This document shows, piece after piece, positions 8,771 through 53,610 of a stretch of DNA of 64,000 nt. The notes beneath the pieces are model-generated. The model was not told the DNA's origin. It made no database searches and was given only the letters and a program-made list of their open reading frames with translations. Position numbers and translations under genes: made by a program. Every line of letters starts with the position of its first letter. Positions within the stretch are counted from its first letter, which is position 1. Origin of the DNA: an uncultured Candidatus Rokubacteria bacterium (GTDB lineage Bacteria > Methylomirabilota > Methylomirabilia > Rokubacteriales > CSP1-6); assembly GCA_963743355.1 (NCBI GenBank), contig CAVUPM010000001.1:1510451-1574450 (forward strand). Direction: 5' to 3'.

Positions 8771-9314
8771 ATGTCTCGCATCGGCAAGAAACCGATTCCG
8801 ATCCCCCCGGGCGTCAAGGTCCAGCTCGACGGCCTGACCGTCCGCGCCGAGGGCCCCAAGGGCAAGCTGAGCCAGCTGGTGCCCGCCGGGCTGACGCCCA
8901 GGGTCGCCGACGGCACCCTCGTCATCGAGCGCAGCGGCGAGGACCGCCGCGCGCGCGCGCTGCACGGCCTGGCCCGCGCGCTGGTGGCCAACATGGTGAC
9001 CGGCGTCAAGGACGGCTTCGAGCGCAAGCTGGAGATCGTCGGCATCGGCTACCGGGCCCAGATGCAGGGCAAGAGCATCCAGCTGGCCCTCGGCTACTCG
9101 CACCCGGTGCTGTTCCCGCTGCCCGACGGCGTGACGGCCGAGATCGACAGGCAGACGGCCATCACCTTGCGAGGTCGCCGACAAGGCGGTGCTCGGCGAG
9201 ACCGCCGCCAAGCTGCGGTCGCTGCGGAAGCCCGACCCCTACAAGGGCAAGGGCATTCGCTACGCGGGCGAAACGGTGCGCCGCAAGGTCGGCAAGAAGG
9301 CGGGCGCGAAATGA
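8771..9314 (+). CDS. rplF: 50S ribosomal protein L6. A 1-nt frameshift near 9170 disrupts the reading frame.
   Basis: ORF 8771.. reads the L6 N-terminus ([11 protein letters not shown]). After ...AITL the alternate frame gives [34 protein letters not shown]...KAGAK*. The stop overlaps the rplR ATG at 9311. Confidence 0.85.
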
Positions 9315-9676: not shown

Positions 9677-9827
9677 CCGGGCCGATGAAAATGGCCCATC
9701 TGCGTCGTTCGATCGGAGGGGGCCTCGGCGGCCCCCTCCGACGCCTCCCCCCGGGAGGCGCGGGCAAAGCCCGCGCTCGAAATGGTGGGGCAGCGCTTGG
9801 CGACCGGGGCCATTTTCATCGGCCCTA
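9677..9827. repeat. Structured palindromic intergenic element. A 19-bp perfect outer inverted repeat (GGGCCGATGAAAATGGCCC / GGGCCATTTTCATCGGCCC) encloses three GC hairpins. The same 22-nt core, GCGCGGGCAAAGCCCGCGCTCG, also occurs at 28351-28372.
   Basis: Direct reading. Outer arms at 9679-9697 and 9807-9825. Inner hairpins are GGAGGGGGCC/GGCCCCCTCC (9715-9739), CGCCTCCC/GGGAGGCG (9742-9760) and GCGCGGGC/GCCCGCGC (9758-9776). It lies in a 232-nt rplR-rpsE spacer that is normally about 10-20 nt. Confidence 0.6.
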
Positions 9828-25658: not shown

Positions 25659-25794
25659 TCAGCGCTCCCCTAAAGTAAAAAGTCAACGTCAACGCTAACA
25701 TGGCGGGCGGGCCGGCGCAACTTCCCGGACCGGCCCGGGCCTCATGGTTACCCTGCCAGCTTGGCACCCCGTCATGCTAGAGTCGATTCTACTC

Positions 25795-27156
25795 ATGGAA
25801 GCCGCCAAAATCCTGGTCGTCGACGACGAGAAGTCGATCCTACTCCTGCTCAAGGAGGCCCTCACCCAGTGGGGGTACGAGGTCACCTGCGCCGCCTCCG
25901 CGGTCGAGGCCCTGGACCTGCTCAAGAACGGCCTCTTCGACGCCCTCATCAGCGACGTCCGGATGCCGGACATGAGCGGCCTGGATCTCTTGCGGGAGGT
26001 CCGCAAGCAGGACGAGTCGATCGAGGTCGTCATGATGACGGGGTACCCGACCATCGCCTCGGCCGTCCAGGCGCTCAAGGAGGGGGCCTACGACTACCTC
26101 TCCAAGCCCCTGATCCTGGACGAGCTGCGCCACCTCATGGCACGGATGATGGAGCGGCGCTTCCTCCGGGGCGAGGTTCACACGCTGAGGGCCCGGCTCG
26201 GTGAAGAGCTGGCCGTCAGTGACTTGGTGGGCTCCTCGGGGCCGATGCAGAGCGTCAAGGACGTCATCGCCAAGGTGGCCGTGACCGACTCGCCGGTGCT
26301 CATCGAGGGCGAGAGCGGCACGGGCAAGGAGCTGGTGGCGGCGGCCATCCACCGCCTGTCGTCCCGGGCCAAGCGCGCGTTCATCCCCGTGAACTGCAGC
26401 GCGATTCCCCAGGACCTGCTCGAGTCCGAGTTCTTCGGCCACGTCCGGGGCGCGTTCTCGGGCGCCGTGGCGGACGCGCTGGGCCTGTTCCGCGGTGCCG
26501 ATGAGGGCACGATCTTTCTGGACGAGATCGCCGAGCTGTCGCCGGCTCTGCAGGTGAAGCTCCTCCGGGTCCTCCAGGAAATGCAGGTCCGTCCCGTCGG
26601 CTCGACGAAGGCTTTCCCCGTCGACGTCCGCGTCATCGCCGCGACCAACCGCGACCTGGAGCGGGCGATGACCGACGGGAGCTTCCGGCAGGACCTCTTC
26701 TATCGGCTCAACGTCGTGCGCATCACGCTGCCGCCGCTGCGCGAGCGGCGTGACGACATCTCGGCGCTCGTGACCCACTTTCTGCGCCGTTTCAACCGCC
26801 GCTTCCACCGCGAGGTGCGCGGGGTGGCCCCGGAGGCCCTGGCGGCCCTCACCGCCTATAGCTTCCCCGGCAACGTCCGCGAGCTCGAGAACCTGATCGA
26901 GCGGGCCTACGCGATGGGCGCGCGCGAGCAGATCTTGCTGGGCGACCTGCCCACGCTGGGGCGGGCCCCCATTATCGCGCCAACCGCCACTGCGACCCAG
27001 GGGAGCCAGGCGGTGCCCACGCTGGCCGACGTCGAGCGCGAGCTGATCCTCAAGGCGCTGGCCGTCTTCAAGGACGACAAGGAGGCGGCTGCGCGGGCCC
27101 TGGGCATCTCGAGGCGGACGATCTATCGCCGTCTCAAGGAGTACGGAGTCCTCTAG
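25795..27156 (+). CDS. sigma54-dependent Fis-family response regulator (NtrC-like: receiver + AAA+ + HTH)
   Basis: Start at the in-frame ATG (MEAAKILVVDDEKS). Receiver Asp (ISDVRMPDMSG), Walker A GESGTGKE, GAFSGA sigma54-contact motif and C-terminal HTH. No histidine kinase is adjacent. Confidence 0.9.
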   Translation: MEAAKILVVDDEKSILLLLKEALTQWGYEVTCAASAVEALDLLKNGLFDALISDVRMPDMSGLDLLREVRKQDESIEVVMMTGYPTIASAVQALKEGAYDYLSKPLILDELRHLMARMMERRFLRGEVHTLRARLGEELAVSDLVGSSGPMQSVKDVIAKVAVTDSPVLIEGESGTGKELVAAAIHRLSSRAKRAFIPVNCSAIPQDLLESEFFGHVRGAFSGAVADALGLFRGADEGTIFLDEIAELSPALQVKLLRVLQEMQVRPVGSTKAFPVDVRVIAATNRDLERAMTDGSFRQDLFYRLNVVRITLPPLRERRDDISALVTHFLRRFNRRFHREVRGVAPEALAALTAYSFPGNVRELENLIERAYAMGAREQILLGDLPTLGRAPIIAPTATATQGSQAVPTLADVERELILKALAVFKDDKEAAARALGISRRTIYRRLKEYGVL

Positions 27157-27297: not shown

Positions 27298-27313
27298 TGG
27301 CACGGGCGACGCA
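27298..27313 (+). promoter_or_regulatory. candidate sigma54 (-24/-12) promoter TGGCACG-N4-ACGCA
   Basis: Exact TGGCACG at -24. The GC at -12 has canonical spacing (consensus TGGCACG-N4-TTGCW). Immediately downstream of a sigma54 activator gene and preceded by an AT-rich patch (GTATTTACTGGTGTTTAC). Confidence 0.5.
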
Positions 27314-27326
27314 ATCACCGCCGCCC

Positions 27327-28268
27327 ATGCTTGATACTGAGATCCCTCAGACGCAGCTGAGCTCGAAGCTGGAAGTGGCGATCGGCGTGAGTGTTGACCC
27401 TAACCCGGACGCGGCGATCGCGGAAGCGGCCGGTCTCGCCGGCCGTCGGCTCGGCAGCGCCAATCCCGACTTCGCGCTGGTGGTGACGGCGGGTTCGGTG
27501 GCGCGCGATGCCGTGGGCACGCTGCGCGAGGTTCTCGGACAGATTTCCGTGGCGGGAGGTGCCGCCACTGCGCTTCTCACGGATCACGGCCTCTCGAAGG
27601 AAGGCGCGCTCGTCGTCTGCGTGGCCAACGCGGACGGCGCCGCCAGCGGGGTGGCCGCCACTGCCGGTCGCAATCTGTGCGAGGCCGGACAGGCGGCGGC
27701 GCGTCTCGTGTTGGCGGGCTGGCCCTTCCGCGCTCGATATCCGCGCGGGCTGGCGTTCGCCTTCGCGCGTCCGGACGGCGGTGACGCCGCCCAGACGTTC
27801 CTCGCCGCCTGGCGGGACTTCATGGGGCCTAAGATGCGGACCGTCTGCACGGTGCTTGGCGGCGCCGCAGCGTACGGGCGCGGGGCTCCGCAGCCCCTGG
27901 CCAGCGTCGCGTGCGTCGAGGCGCCCTACGCCTCCGGTATCGGCTACACCGATGCGTCACCGACCGACGGCGTGACCCCGACCCGGGAGACGCTGGTCCA
28001 CGGCGCCGCCGACGCCATGCTCACCGCGGTGAAGCGCCTCGAGGGGCGCCCGGCGCGGCTGGTGCTGGTGATGGAGAGCGCCGCGCGCCATCGCATGCTG
28101 GGCACGGCGGTGGCCGAGGAGTGGGCGGCGATGCGCGGTGTGCTCGAGGATCGCACCCCGTGCGTTGGTTGGATCGGCGAGCACGTGGCCGCCTACGGCC
28201 GCGGCGTGCAGCCGACCGGCGCCCCGGGCGCGCTGGTGGTCGTGACACTCGGAGACGCACCGCGCTGA
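27327..28268 (+). CDS. hypothetical protein, Ala/Gly-rich, about 314 aa. Possibly a FIST-like sensor (speculative). Predicted sigma54-dependent.
   Basis: ORF 27297..28268. The start was moved to the ATG at 27327 because the predicted promoter overlaps the first 10 codons. A GTG near 27372 is an alternative start. No recognisable catalytic motifs. Confidence 0.5.
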   Translation: MLDTEIPQTQLSSKLEVAIGVSVDPNPDAAIAEAAGLAGRRLGSANPDFALVVTAGSVARDAVGTLREVLGQISVAGGAATALLTDHGLSKEGALVVCVANADGAASGVAATAGRNLCEAGQAAARLVLAGWPFRARYPRGLAFAFARPDGGDAAQTFLAAWRDFMGPKMRTVCTVLGGAAAYGRGAPQPLASVACVEAPYASGIGYTDASPTDGVTPTRETLVHGAADAMLTAVKRLEGRPARLVLVMESAARHRMLGTAVAEEWAAMRGVLEDRTPCVGWIGEHVAAYGRGVQPTGAPGALVVVTLGDAPR

Positions 28269-28272
28269 GCTC

Positions 28273-28294
28273 GAGGGGGGCATCGCCCCCCTTC
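28273..28294. terminator. GC hairpin GGGGGGC-ATC-GCCCCCC between convergent genes (bidirectional terminator candidate, no U-tract)
   Basis: Direct reading. Followed by further short palindromes (CGACG-GT-CGTCG, GCGCGCC-TGGC-GGCGCGC) and the REP-like core at 28351-28372. Confidence 0.45.
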
Positions 28295-28350
28295 GACGGT
28301 CGTCGCGCGCCTGGCGGCGCGCTCCTCCCTGCTCCCCCCAGATTCGGATT

Positions 28351-28372
28351 GCGCGGGCAAAGCCCGCGCTCG
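28351..28372. repeat. Second copy of the palindromic core GCGCGGGCAAAGCCCGCGCTCG (identical to 9758-9779)
   Basis: Exact 22/22 match. Also preceded by a CTCCCCCC run, as in copy 1. Confidence 0.6.
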
Positions 28373-28448
28373 GAGCGCGCGACTCCCCGAGAGGTTGTGC
28401 CTGCCCTGCGGTGAACGATCAGTCGTGGCCGTGAGCTTCCAGGTCGGA

Positions 28449-51384: not shown

Positions 51385-51442
51385 ACGAATGGCAGGGCCG
51401 AGGAGCACCCCGGCTTGGCCGGGGCGTGACGAGCGGTGGGGT

Positions 51443-51466
51443 GTGGGGGCCATCGCGGCCCCCCAC
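51443..51466. terminator. GC hairpin GTGGGGGCC-ATCGC-GGCCCCCCAC between the convergent GT4 and GT2 genes
   Basis: Direct reading. Abuts the GT2 stop codon. Confidence 0.45.
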
Positions 51467-52528
51467 CTACCAAAAAACCAGGCGCCTGACCACGCTCCAG
51501 TAGGTCGCGAACGCCGGATCGAGCACCCAGCGCACGGCCGCGGACGCGACCGGCCCGAACGCGAACCGGGAGGAGAGGAACGGCGCGAGTTCACAATCGC
51601 GCCGCCGCCGCAGCGCCTGCACCGCGCGGCGCTTGGCGGCGAGGTAGCGCCACGACGCGGGGCGCATGAAGAAGCCGTACACGGCCAGTCGCTCGAGGAG
51701 CCATCCGTTGCGGGCGGCGTAGAGCATGCCCACCGGCTCGAACGCCAGCAGGGCGGGCGCCAGCACCGCCAGCGTCGCCGCCCGATAGTGCGTGAGCACG
51801 TTGATCAGGCGGTTGCGCTCGACGTAGTGCCACTTCCGCTTCCACGCCAGACGCGCGAAGTCGTAGTCGTGGTGCACGACGGCGTCCGGCGCCAGCAGCG
51901 CGTCCCAGCCGGCCAGGCGCAGGCGCCAGCCGAGATCGGAGTCCTCGTGGTACATGAACAGCGCCGGGTCGAACGTCCCGACCTCGCGCAGGGCGCGGGC
52001 CCGGTAGAGCACGCCGGCGCCGCTCGCGTAGGCGATCGGCCGGACGTCGAGCGGGCGGTCGGGCTCGCCGTCGCCGCCCACGAATCCCACGCCGAGGTAG
52101 TGCAGCTCGTTGCCGCGCGAGTGGATGACGACACGGCCGTCGGGCTCGCGTCGCAGGAGCTTGGGCTGCACGGCGCCGGCGGTGGGATGGGCCTCCGCGA
52201 CGTCCACCAGCGCGCGCAGAACGTCGGGCCCGAGGTGCGTGTCCTGGGTGACGATCACCACGTAGTCCGCACCGGCGGCCAGCGCTTCGTTCATGCCGAG
52301 CGCGTTGCCGCCCGCGTAGCCGGTATTGTCCCCCGGCACCAGCACCTGCACGCCGGGCGCCTGCTCACCGAACCAGCGGGCCGCGGCCCGGTCCGGCCCG
52401 TTCTCGACGACGATCAACCGCCAGCGCTCGGGCGGATAGCGCTGGGCGCGCAGGCTCGCCCACAGCCGCTCGAGGTGGGTGGTGCCGTAGAAGGTGACGA
52501 GGACGACGGCGACCGCGGGCGCGGTCAC
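51467..52528 (-). CDS. glycosyltransferase family 2
   Basis: 353 aa. VVLVTFYGTTHLERLWASL...VVENGPD and internal DSD/ED motifs. Confidence 0.8.
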   Translation of the reverse strand: MTAPAVAVVLVTFYGTTHLERLWASLRAQRYPPERWRLIVVENGPDRAAARWFGEQAPGVQVLVPGDNTGYAGGNALGMNEALAAGADYVVIVTQDTHLGPDVLRALVDVAEAHPTAGAVQPKLLRREPDGRVVIHSRGNELHYLGVGFVGGDGEPDRPLDVRPIAYASGAGVLYRARALREVGTFDPALFMYHEDSDLGWRLRLAGWDALLAPDAVVHHDYDFARLAWKRKWHYVERNRLINVLTHYRAATLAVLAPALLAFEPVGMLYAARNGWLLERLAVYGFFMRPASWRYLAAKRRAVQALRRRRDCELAPFLSSRFAFGPVASAAVRWVLDPAFATYWSVVRRLVFW

Positions 52529-53522: not shown

Positions 53523-53555
53523 TTGATAGGGGGGAGCGATCGCCGCTCCCCCCTA
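53523..53555. terminator. 12-bp-stem GC hairpin TAGGGGGGAGCG-ATCG-CGCTCCCCCCTA downstream of livF
   Basis: Direct reading. Confidence 0.4.
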
Positions 53556-53610
53556 GGCCCCCCAGCGGGGACCCGCGAGGTTGTTCCGGTCCCGTTCGAC
53601 CCCGACGTTG

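Follow-up and report, generated by a model that had tools for sequence, protein, structure and literature searches.

A dispersed, modular hairpin repeat family of Candidatus Rokubacteria, with two likely copies in a 64-kb stretch of one genome

We analyzed a stretch of 64,000 nucleotides (nt) from the genome of an uncultured Candidatus Rokubacteria bacterium (contig CAVUPM010000001.1; hereafter "the window"), in which a 22-nt palindromic sequence occurs twice. Both occurrences are likely to represent one hairpin, called H2 here, of a dispersed, non-coding and modular repeat family of Rokubacteria and Methylomirabilota. We are more confident still that this is a dispersed repeat family resembling the repetitive extragenic palindromic (REP) sequences and bacterial interspersed mosaic elements (BIMEs) of other bacteria. 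The family is present in multiple copies within and across many genomes, its copies have unique flanks, and it shows insertion/deletion polymorphism. Copies are found in transcribed spacers in either orientation, wedged between a stop codon and the ribosome-binding site of the next gene. They are gained and lost at orthologous sites, yet may persist for a long time while the remaining spacer diverges past alignment, and both of their stems are maintained by compensatory changes. The family is previously undescribed, and its layout is closer to that of BOX elements or BIMEs than to that of simple REPs or REP doublets forming hairpins (REPINs).

The 22-mer, GCGCGGGCAAAGCCCGCGCTCG, lies on the forward strand at positions 9758-9779 (copy 1) and 28351-28372 (copy 2), and no other site in the window matches it with three or fewer mismatches. 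A preliminary description of the window had noted this identity and had attributed it to a dispersed REP/BIME-like family. The identity is exact, and dinucleotide-preserving shuffles of the window have a mean of 0.03 matches to the 22-mer, with 0 of 100 reaching two. The same description had pointed to shared surroundings, and these are also borne out. The run CTCCCCCC is located upstream of both 22-mers (9745-9752 and 28332-28339), and each copy has a G-run/C-run hairpin of the same style, namely TCGGAGGGGGCC/GGCCCCCTCCGA at 9713-9741 in copy 1 (12 bp, 100% complementary) and AGGGGGGC/GCCCCCCT at 28274-28292 in copy 2. The four palindromes that had been reported around copy 2 were all found within 28271-28383: the G-run/C-run hairpin (H1), a middle hairpin, H2 itself (28351-28369) and, overlapping H2 at its 3' arm, a fourth palindrome (CGCGCTC-G-GAGCGCG, 28365-28379) that is not conserved at orthologous loci.

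The two copies are in different genetic settings. Copy 2 is indeed in a convergent intergenic region: its spacer (28269-28448) separates a forward-strand gene for a 313-amino-acid (aa) protein of unknown function from a reverse-strand gene for hydantoinase B, and H1 begins 3 nt past the stop codon (28266-28268) of the former. The closest homologues of the 313-aa protein carry the name Methylomirabilota, and together with the S5 relatives described below they place the window in this clade. Copy 1 occupies a 232-nt spacer between rplR (encoding L18) and rpsE (encoding S5), in the spc ribosomal-protein operon. It is predicted to fold into three hairpins, with a free energy of -54 kcal/mol for its 69-nt core (z=-4.7), and it is enclosed by an outer hairpin, which we call X. 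Copy 1 together with the enclosing X has a predicted free energy of -107.7 kcal/mol (z=-7.4).

To determine the extent of the family, we compared the exact 19-nt hairpin H2 with 185,579 species-representative genomes and oriented the matches on the hairpin; L-numbers below are labels of the retrieved loci. The hairpin occurs at no fewer than 120 loci in these genomes. Among the matches listed, about 65 belong to metagenome-assembled genomes (MAGs) of Candidatus Rokubacteria, Rokuibacteriota or Methylomirabilota, or to unnamed bins with the same signature, and these come from more than 30 assemblies. At these Rokubacteria-type loci the hairpin is followed by TCGAA or TCGGA, and 58 of them also have an upstream C-run. 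The exact 19-mer is found on up to 8 contigs per MAG, again among the matches listed, and the composite element has a density of approximately 1 per 30-40 kb of sampled DNA. The preliminary description had allowed that the 22-mer might occur only at its two original sites, with flanking similarity at background level. Neither is the case; the composite is present at dozens of unrelated loci in more than 30 MAGs among the matches listed, and both of its stems covary.

Forty-two copies, i.e., copy 1 and 41 copies from MAGs, can be aligned over the full unit of H1, C-run and H2. Their consensus of about 75 nt is (Y)CC-TCGGAGGGGGGC-TYC-GCCCCCCTTCCGA-NN-CCTCCCCCC-(4-12 nt)-GCGCGGGCAAAGCCCGCGC-TCGRA, in which the spacer mostly ends in GGTT or GATT. 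H1 is the G-run/C-run hairpin, TCGGAGGGGGGC-loop-GCCCCCCTTCCGA, of 26-29 nt with a stem of 11-12 bp, and the CCTCCCCCC run often pairs weakly with GGAGG downstream of it. H2 measures 19 nt and has an 8-bp stem (GCG-NN-GGC, loop RRA, GCC-NN-CGC). Conserved unpaired nucleotides adjoin both hairpins: (Y)CC flanks H1, while H2 has (G/A)TT on its 5' side and on its 3' side the tail TCGRA, which is kept in 46-48 of 48 copies. Based on position-specific counts, the conserved borders of the element lie about 2-4 nt before TCGG and at TCGRA.

Variation on this plan is modular. The order of H1, C-run, spacer, H2 and TCGRA is set, and extra hairpins are optional, as is typical of BIME- and BOX-type modularity. 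In subtype B, to which copy 1 belongs, H1 is GGAGGGGGCC-TCGAC-GGCCCCCTCC; subtypes A and B are found together in the same MAGs. In variant C, H1 and the C-run are separated by an extra hairpin (GTCGCRCGCC..GGCGYGC); this variant is represented by copy 2 and by three copies at unrelated loci (L075, L083 and L091). Three other loci (L049, L051 and L120) have a long hairpin inserted between the C-run and H2. H1 with the C-run but without H2, and H2 by itself, are also seen. Most copies are single; among approximately 60 copies there is one inverted pair within 200 nt (L095) and one tandem pair (L018). Copies within a genome resemble one another slightly more than do copies in different genomes (0.78 vs 0.72; permutation p=0.0008).

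We built a covariance model from the alignment, as the preliminary description had proposed. This model (R1) scores copy 1 at 77.7 bits (E=7e-16) and copy 2 at 43 bits (E=5e-8), and in the 8-kb flanks of the retrieved loci it finds 10-12 more copies that do not contain the exact 19-mer. No Rfam 15 family matches the window, and none matches the elements in 7 related loci at the gathering threshold; in E-value mode, only junk with E>2 is obtained. In the library that we searched, we found no literature that names these sequences or that ties Rokubacteria to REPs, REPINs, palindromic repeats or REP-associated tyrosine transposases (RAYTs).

Both stems show compensatory changes. For H1, RNAalifold analysis of the 42 copies shows outer-stem changes from UA to CG in 4 copies and from CG to UA or GC in 2, and inner-stem changes from GC to CG or UA in 12. 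For H2, we used A4, a covariance-model alignment whose 19 rows are copies in the window and at 11 loci. About half of these rows were found without the exact 19-mer; the rest carry the 19-mer, and so add only invariant rows. Examples of the stem are GCGCCGGC-GRA-GCCGGCGC, GCGAGGGC-GAA-GCCCTCGC, GCGGCGGC-AAA-GCCGCCGC and GCGACGGC-AAA-GCCGTCGC. In A4, 99.3% of cells in H2 are paired, and the two middle stem positions are changed on both sides in 4 of 19 and 8 of 19 copies, respectively. The covariation score is reached in 0 of 500 shuffles, and all slid controls collapse. The three outermost and the three innermost base pairs do not vary, a pattern that suggests recognition of sequence plus shape. 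The predicted minimum free energy (MFE) is -19.5 to -27.7 kcal/mol for H1 and -16.2 kcal/mol for H2.

The coordinates of the elements in the window are listed in Table 1. Beyond the two copies, we list two possible diverged relatives whose membership in the family is uncertain. Hairpins of the type G5+..C5+ occur only four times in the window, and these are copies 1 and 2 and the two possible relatives. The latter may be older or sister subfamilies; the second of them sits between two co-directional minus-strand genes.

Table 1. Repeat elements and their parts in the window
Feature	Position	Strand	Details
Copy 1, complete two-hairpin element, type B	9713..9781	+	H1 9713-9741; C-run 9744-9752; H2 9758-9776; tail TCGAA 9777-9781
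Copy 2, module H1	28271..28296	+	TCGAGGGGGGC-ATC-GCCCCCCTTCGA; -19.5 kcal/mol; partial covariance-model match
Copy 2, optional middle hairpin ("variant C" insert between H1 and C-run)	28305..28322	+	GCGCGCC-TGGC-GGCGCGC; -15.5 kcal/mol
Copy 2, C-run	28331..28339	+	GCTCCCCCC (family consensus CCTCCCCCC)
Copy 2, module H2	28351..28374	+	Hairpin GCGCGGGC-AAA-GCCCGCGC, tail TCGGA; 8-bp stem; -16.2 kcal/mol; contains the 22-mer
Outer hairpin element X, encloses copy 1	9679..9825	+	Arms GGGCCGATGAAAATGGCCC (9679-9697) and GGGCCATTTTCATCGGCCC (9807-9825); 19/19 complementary
Possible diverged relative, membership uncertain	51395..51477	-	GGTGGGGGGCC-GCGAT-GGCCCCCAC, then CCCCGGC-CAA-GCCGGGG; convergent spacer; covariance model E=0.013
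Possible diverged relative of H1 + C-run, membership uncertain	53529..53566	+	GGGGGGAGCG-ATCG-CGCTCCCCCC, TAGG, CCCCCC; covariance model E=0.1

For 61 copies, we inferred which strand is coding on either side, using the codon-position GC signature rather than annotation. For 54 copies the arrangement of the neighboring genes is co-directional with the element in sense (27 copies), co-directional with the element in antisense (20), convergent (6) or divergent (1). Divergent spacers are thus depleted: they account for 1 of 54 copies, compared with 13.6% of all gene pairs of the same loci (binomial p=0.0035). There is no bias between sense and antisense (p=0.38). This intergenic distribution, which supports the REP/BIME-like reading of the preliminary description, is the one reported for REPs (PMC3733652). 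Coding sequence mostly resumes 0-90 nt away on either side of a copy, and H1 usually starts a few nucleotides past a stop codon or a reversed start codon.

The flanks of different copies are unrelated, since an all-against-all blastn comparison yields essentially one orthologous pair only, and blastn of the locus flanks reveals neither a recurrent neighboring gene nor a larger mobile element. The orthologous pair (L022 and L100) consists of loci from two species with a type-B element between tandem paralogous genes. Here the element has diverged about as much as its flanks (about 85-89%), and so it is an example of vertical inheritance. In six antisense contexts (L002, L044, L068, L090, L095 and L121) only 3-4 nt separate the downstream start codon from the foot of H1 (…CCGAGG(G)T-ATG). 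At this distance, the hairpin would contain the Shine-Dalgarno sequence, or else GGGGGGAGG, the complement of the C-run, would provide it from across the hairpin. Judging from these arrangements, an effect of H1 on translation is possible near antisense-context start codons.

The site of copy 1 provides a comparison of filled and empty spacers. The metagenome collection is rich in S5 relatives at 93-99% identity; we examined 80 metagenome loci with close S5 relatives and measured how far the S5 start codon lies from the stop codon of L18 in 76 of them. The spacer ranges from 9 to 207 nt, and in 35 of the 76 loci it is at most 26 nt, i.e., essentially the Shine-Dalgarno sequence alone. The closest relatives (L123, L126 and L128, with S5 98-99% identical) have a spacer of 52-53 nt and no element. 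Two loci (L146 and L160) have the two-hairpin element alone, 0-1 nt past the stop codon, and L144 has a degenerate copy. The outer hairpin X is found alone (62 nt) in L140, and with a different inner hairpin, Y, in five loci (L124, L170, L177, L167 and L156). In the window, the two-hairpin element is nested in the loop of X. The same nesting is seen at the unrelated loci L040, L074 and L078, where differences between the arms of X are compensating. When empty and filled sites are aligned, X directly follows the stop codon.

Several repeat families share the rplR-rpsE spacer as a hotspot. One of them, X (GGGCCGATGAAAACGGCCCATCTGCGTCGTT ... GCATCTGGGCCGTTTTGATCGGCCC), forms a separate family, whose loop is bare or contains either the inner hairpin Y or the nested two-hairpin element. 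Eight loci from other Rokubacteria relatives have a different hairpin repeat in this spacer, (CGCGTGTTCGCAGG)GGAGTCGAGAGGGGGGCGGAGCCCCCTTCTCC, in one copy (L133, L150 and L163), two copies (L130, L154 and L159) or three copies in tandem (L152 and L157).

At the site of copy 2, the synteny of a sigma-54 activator gene, the 313-aa gene and the convergent hyuB gene is kept in relatives at 80-96% protein identity. H1 directly follows the stop codon in all of these relatives, and the middle hairpin and C-run are present in all except L216. Changes in H1 are compensated, e.g., from GGAGG/CCTTCC to GGCGG/CCGTCC. The window, L203, L204-209 and L210-212 have the H2 block, which is absent from L217, L214/215 and L216. 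The rest of the spacer is not alignable among these relatives. It follows from this pattern that the modules are long-lived and constrained, and that H2 is a separable unit that is gained or lost. The presence and absence of elements at both orthologous sites agree with the REP/BIME-like interpretation of the preliminary description.

It is important to consider the points that weigh against a mobile, REP/BIME-like family. The copy number in the source genome is extrapolated from relatives and from the 2 (up to 4) copies that the window contains, and a figure of hundreds per genome would likewise be an extrapolation. Because copies of H2 were collected with the exact 19-mer, its apparent invariance is inflated in the main alignment. 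No target-site duplication is evident when empty and filled rplR-rpsE sites are compared. A test for strand-specific selection on RNA, based on the difference between MFE(+) and MFE(-) in sense and antisense contexts and on G-U counts in H2, gave no signal; this is because the stems are almost wholly Watson-Crick in both contexts. Copies are mostly single, unlike the inverted doublets typical of REPINs. Finally, a transposase was not found near the elements. E. coli RayT has no match by phmmer in about 7,500 open reading frames (ORFs) from approximately 1 Mb sampled from about 40 genomes, and a scan of the sampled ORFs for the motif HUH...Y..NP gave one weak, non-adjacent candidate only. ORFs between inverted copies (L003 and L097) are housekeeping genes that encode, according to Pfam, a helicase and a carboxyltransferase, and no transposase. 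The RAYT searches are uninformative because in the approximately 1 Mb sampled only about one flanking case would be expected.

Despite these points, a non-autonomous element is the reading that we favor. The elements may be spread by a trans-acting host or transposase function that would read the invariant parts of the hairpins. They would be co-transcribed with their flanking genes, and their stable stem-loops might then act on the mRNA, either as barriers to 3'-exonucleases or as processing or pause sites. In the case of copy 1, the 19-bp outer stem is a plausible RNase III substrate, whose cleavage would split the mRNA into an L18 part and an S5 part. We regard consequences at the mRNA level as a serious possibility that falls somewhat short of probable.

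One candidate for the mobilizing function is a RAYT. If the elements were true REPs or REPINs, they would be cut and copied by such a single-copy enzyme, an HUH Y1 transposase, which would read H2 or H1 as single-stranded DNA (ssDNA) hairpins. Several properties of H2 fit this idea. It is REP-like in size, with an 8-bp GC stem and conserved unpaired flanks, and its outer and inner base pairs are invariant while only the middle two covary, as expected of a hairpin that is recognized by a protein. The intergenic distribution is also REP-like (PMC3733652), within-genome copies are slightly homogeneous, and the long vertical persistence of the elements resembles that described for REPINs (bioRxiv 10.1101/2022.05.22.493013). 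However, the sample contained no RAYT-like ORF, although for the reason given above this is a weak test. Moreover, the GTAG tag is absent, inverted doublets are rare (only the L095 pair among approximately 60 copies), and while CGTC precedes the middle hairpin of copy 2, this hairpin does not follow the stem rules of CGTC families. On balance, we consider mobilization by a RAYT-type enzyme doubtful.

It might instead be supposed that the elements are not mobile, and are host RNA structures selected separately at each site, e.g., protective hairpins in 3' untranslated regions or between cistrons, or factor-independent terminators. Their likeness would then arise from what the RNA machinery needs. 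In favor of this idea, the stems are very stable, copies adjoin stop codons, and at the copy 2 site all of the relatives examined have H1 right behind the stop codon of the 313-aa gene, joined by the middle hairpin and C-run in all but L216, with compensatory changes and in a spacer that otherwise defies alignment. However, the elements occur in both orientations relative to transcription (27 vs 20), and one copy is located in the spc operon, which is essential and in which termination would do harm. Neither a U-tract nor a terminator-like site is present, and half of the close relatives thrive with an empty rplR-rpsE spacer of 9-26 nt. Convergence cannot produce near-identical sequences of about 75 nt at unrelated loci. 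We judge this explanation unlikely. In particular, we rejected Rho-independent terminators as candidates; no terminator-like site is present on either strand at either window locus, H2 is followed by TCGRA, and copy 1 is within the spc operon. A promoter scan found no promoter-like site at either locus.

Two further ideas concern what recognizes the elements or how they fold. One is that the family is an ancient, clade-wide element in which H2 and the mirror-symmetric H1 and C-run are read by a dedicated host or domesticated protein, or form an intramolecular triplex. The targeted nesting (H2 beside C-runs, and the two-hairpin unit in the loop of X) and the insertion hotspot in the spc operon are hints in this direction. 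We view this combined idea as a long shot. If true, it would amount to a new RAYT-less system of repeat and protein that shapes the processing of operon mRNAs in Rokubacteria.

The other, narrower idea is that the functional core of the element is an intramolecular triple helix of the pyrimidine motif, which H1 would form with the C-run in RNA or ssDNA. This idea arises because the C-run, 5'-CCTCCCCCC, exactly mirrors the Watson-Crick arm and would thus match the purine arm, 5'-GGAGGGGGG, in parallel Hoogsteen fashion. The mirror symmetry is kept in at least 50 copies, the linker of 4-5 nt has the right geometry, and the lengths of the runs are associated (C6 accompanies G6 in 25 of 37 copies, and C5 accompanies G5 in 9 of 13). 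However, this association is confounded by the descent of subfamilies A and B, and homopolymer lengths are noisy. The GGCGG variants either keep CCTCC (L082 and L022) or change to CCACC (L210 and L217), neither of which is compatible with a triplex. In addition, the C-run often pairs with the downstream GGAGG or G-run instead, and C+*G-C triplets require acid. A functional triplex is thus very improbable.

A chance resemblance between GC-rich palindromes in a genome of 70% GC can safely be dismissed: short GC hairpins are indeed common and the 19-mer is also found in unrelated taxa and other contexts, but two matches are obtained in 0 of 100 shuffles, H1, the C-run and TCGRA are common to dozens of loci, and the covariance-model E-values are as low as 7e-16 and 5e-8.

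The 19-mer matches outside of Rokubacteria, among them those in Sphingomonadales, Patescibacteria and cyanobacteria, are in other contexts. The version in Sphingomonadales (Polymorphobacter) and certain other Alphaproteobacteria constitutes a different element, in which a conserved GTCGGACGGGTTCGG(N)... hairpin follows the 19-nt one. Loci with this type of element are L006, L011, L021, L026, L027, L029, L048, L054, L060, L062, L070, L107, L113 and L115. In L026, a signal recognition particle RNA (RF00169) is about 105 nt from the hairpin on the opposite strand. The remaining matches outside of Rokubacteria have no common flanking pattern.

Given a REP/BIME-like family as our preferred reading, we compared it to known classes of repeats. 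As with the REPs and BIMEs of E. coli and other Proteobacteria, its members are short, GC-rich intergenic palindromes in many copies whose palindromy is kept by compensatory changes. They share with REPs and BIMEs the preference for co-directional and convergent spacers, the rarity in divergent ones, and the presence within operons, in either orientation and presumably co-transcribed. Like BIMEs, they are mosaics of hairpin modules and linker motifs. However, BIMEs consist of alternating inverted REPs, whereas the modules here (H1 and H2) are dissimilar, have a fixed order and have the same orientation. The sequence is also different, the GTAG tag is lacking and a C9 run is present. REPs and BIMEs are species-specific, while this family is conserved across many species of a phylum-level clade. 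Moreover, its host lineage is uncultured and non-proteobacterial, and no RAYT was found in the DNA sampled. In terms of the broad definition of REPs, palindromy and intergenic bias are both present, while neither a GTAG/CGTC tag nor the inverted-doublet unit of REPINs is found.

The REPIN-RAYT systems of Pseudomonas and Enterobacteria are similar in being non-autonomous, in their long vertical persistence, in their presence or absence at orthologous sites and in forming populations within genomes. They differ in that a REPIN consists of two inverted REPs that form one long hairpin and is associated with a flanking single-copy RAYT, whereas most of the elements here are singletons made up of two different hairpins.

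BOX elements of Streptococcus pneumoniae (boxA-boxB-boxC) have a fixed module order, optional middle modules and a stable structure, and they are co-transcribed and non-coding. They are AT-richer and longer, their middle modules are in tandem, and no mechanism of mobilization is known for them. The Rokubacteria family resembles them in being modular, with a fixed order, a variable middle module, a stable structure and no coding capacity. In contrast to BOX, its sequence and host are unrelated, and its middle module is an optional different hairpin rather than a tandem repeat.

The outer hairpin X is more reminiscent of the ERIC/IRU (enterobacterial repetitive intergenic consensus/intergenic repeat unit) and Correia (nemis) repeats, which are long hairpins that resemble miniature inverted-repeat transposable elements (MITEs). 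Like these repeats, X is an imperfect palindrome of 60-150 nt with terminal inverted repeats of 19-26 nt and with size variants that result from internal insertions. It is also located in transcribed spacers, where it would give a long double-stranded RNA stem, i.e., an RNase III-type substrate. However, its sequence is unrelated, no TA-type target duplication is seen, and its loop holds a nested copy of another family. Considered as a possible MITE, the two-hairpin unit has no terminal inverted repeats, while X does, and no parent insertion sequence is known.

A further class, the CGTC-tagged REPs (Di Nocera et al. 2013, PMC3733652), is similar in its intergenic bias, and CGTC directly precedes the middle hairpin of copy 2. 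No dedicated transposase is known for these REPs, whose families have stems of 8-9 bp with A/T in the first two positions, loops of 4-5 nt and a CCA tail (PMC3733652). On these rules for stem, loop and tail we rejected membership in this class; the stems of the hairpins described here consist purely of GC, their tails are different, and CGTC occurs before the optional middle hairpin only.

The family extends REP/BIME-type elements to a clade outside of the phyla where they have been catalogued, and its sequence conservation across many species is unusual for such elements. It does not represent a new kind of system, nor does it change any long-standing question. Being defined and captured in a covariance model, it provides a lineage marker for Rokubacteria and Methylomirabilota, bacteria with large genomes that abound in soil and groundwater and are represented almost exclusively by MAGs. 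It accounts for oversized spacers as well as for breaks in assemblies, and suggests a post-transcriptional layer that reaches even into a ribosomal-protein operon. The empty and filled rplR-rpsE sites constitute a natural experiment on insertion and on its cost or benefit to the host.

Some minor observations concern the genes near the two copies. The rplF gene (L6; 8771-9676) seems to be frameshifted at about 9160-9175: the N-terminus of L6 is followed by nonsense, with no stop codon before L18, and the canonical L6 C-terminus is found in the +1 frame. The probable cause is an assembly error of 1 nt, since the gene is essential, and so homopolymer lengths elsewhere in the window should be treated with caution. 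Near copy 2, a gene for a sigma-54-dependent response regulator (25744-27156) is directly upstream of the 313-aa gene. Just 5' of the latter (ATG at 27327) is a sigma-54-type promoter-like motif, TGGCAC-N5-ACGCA (27298-27313). The synteny of the regulator and 313-aa gene pair with the convergent hyuB/hyuA genes is kept in all relatives examined.

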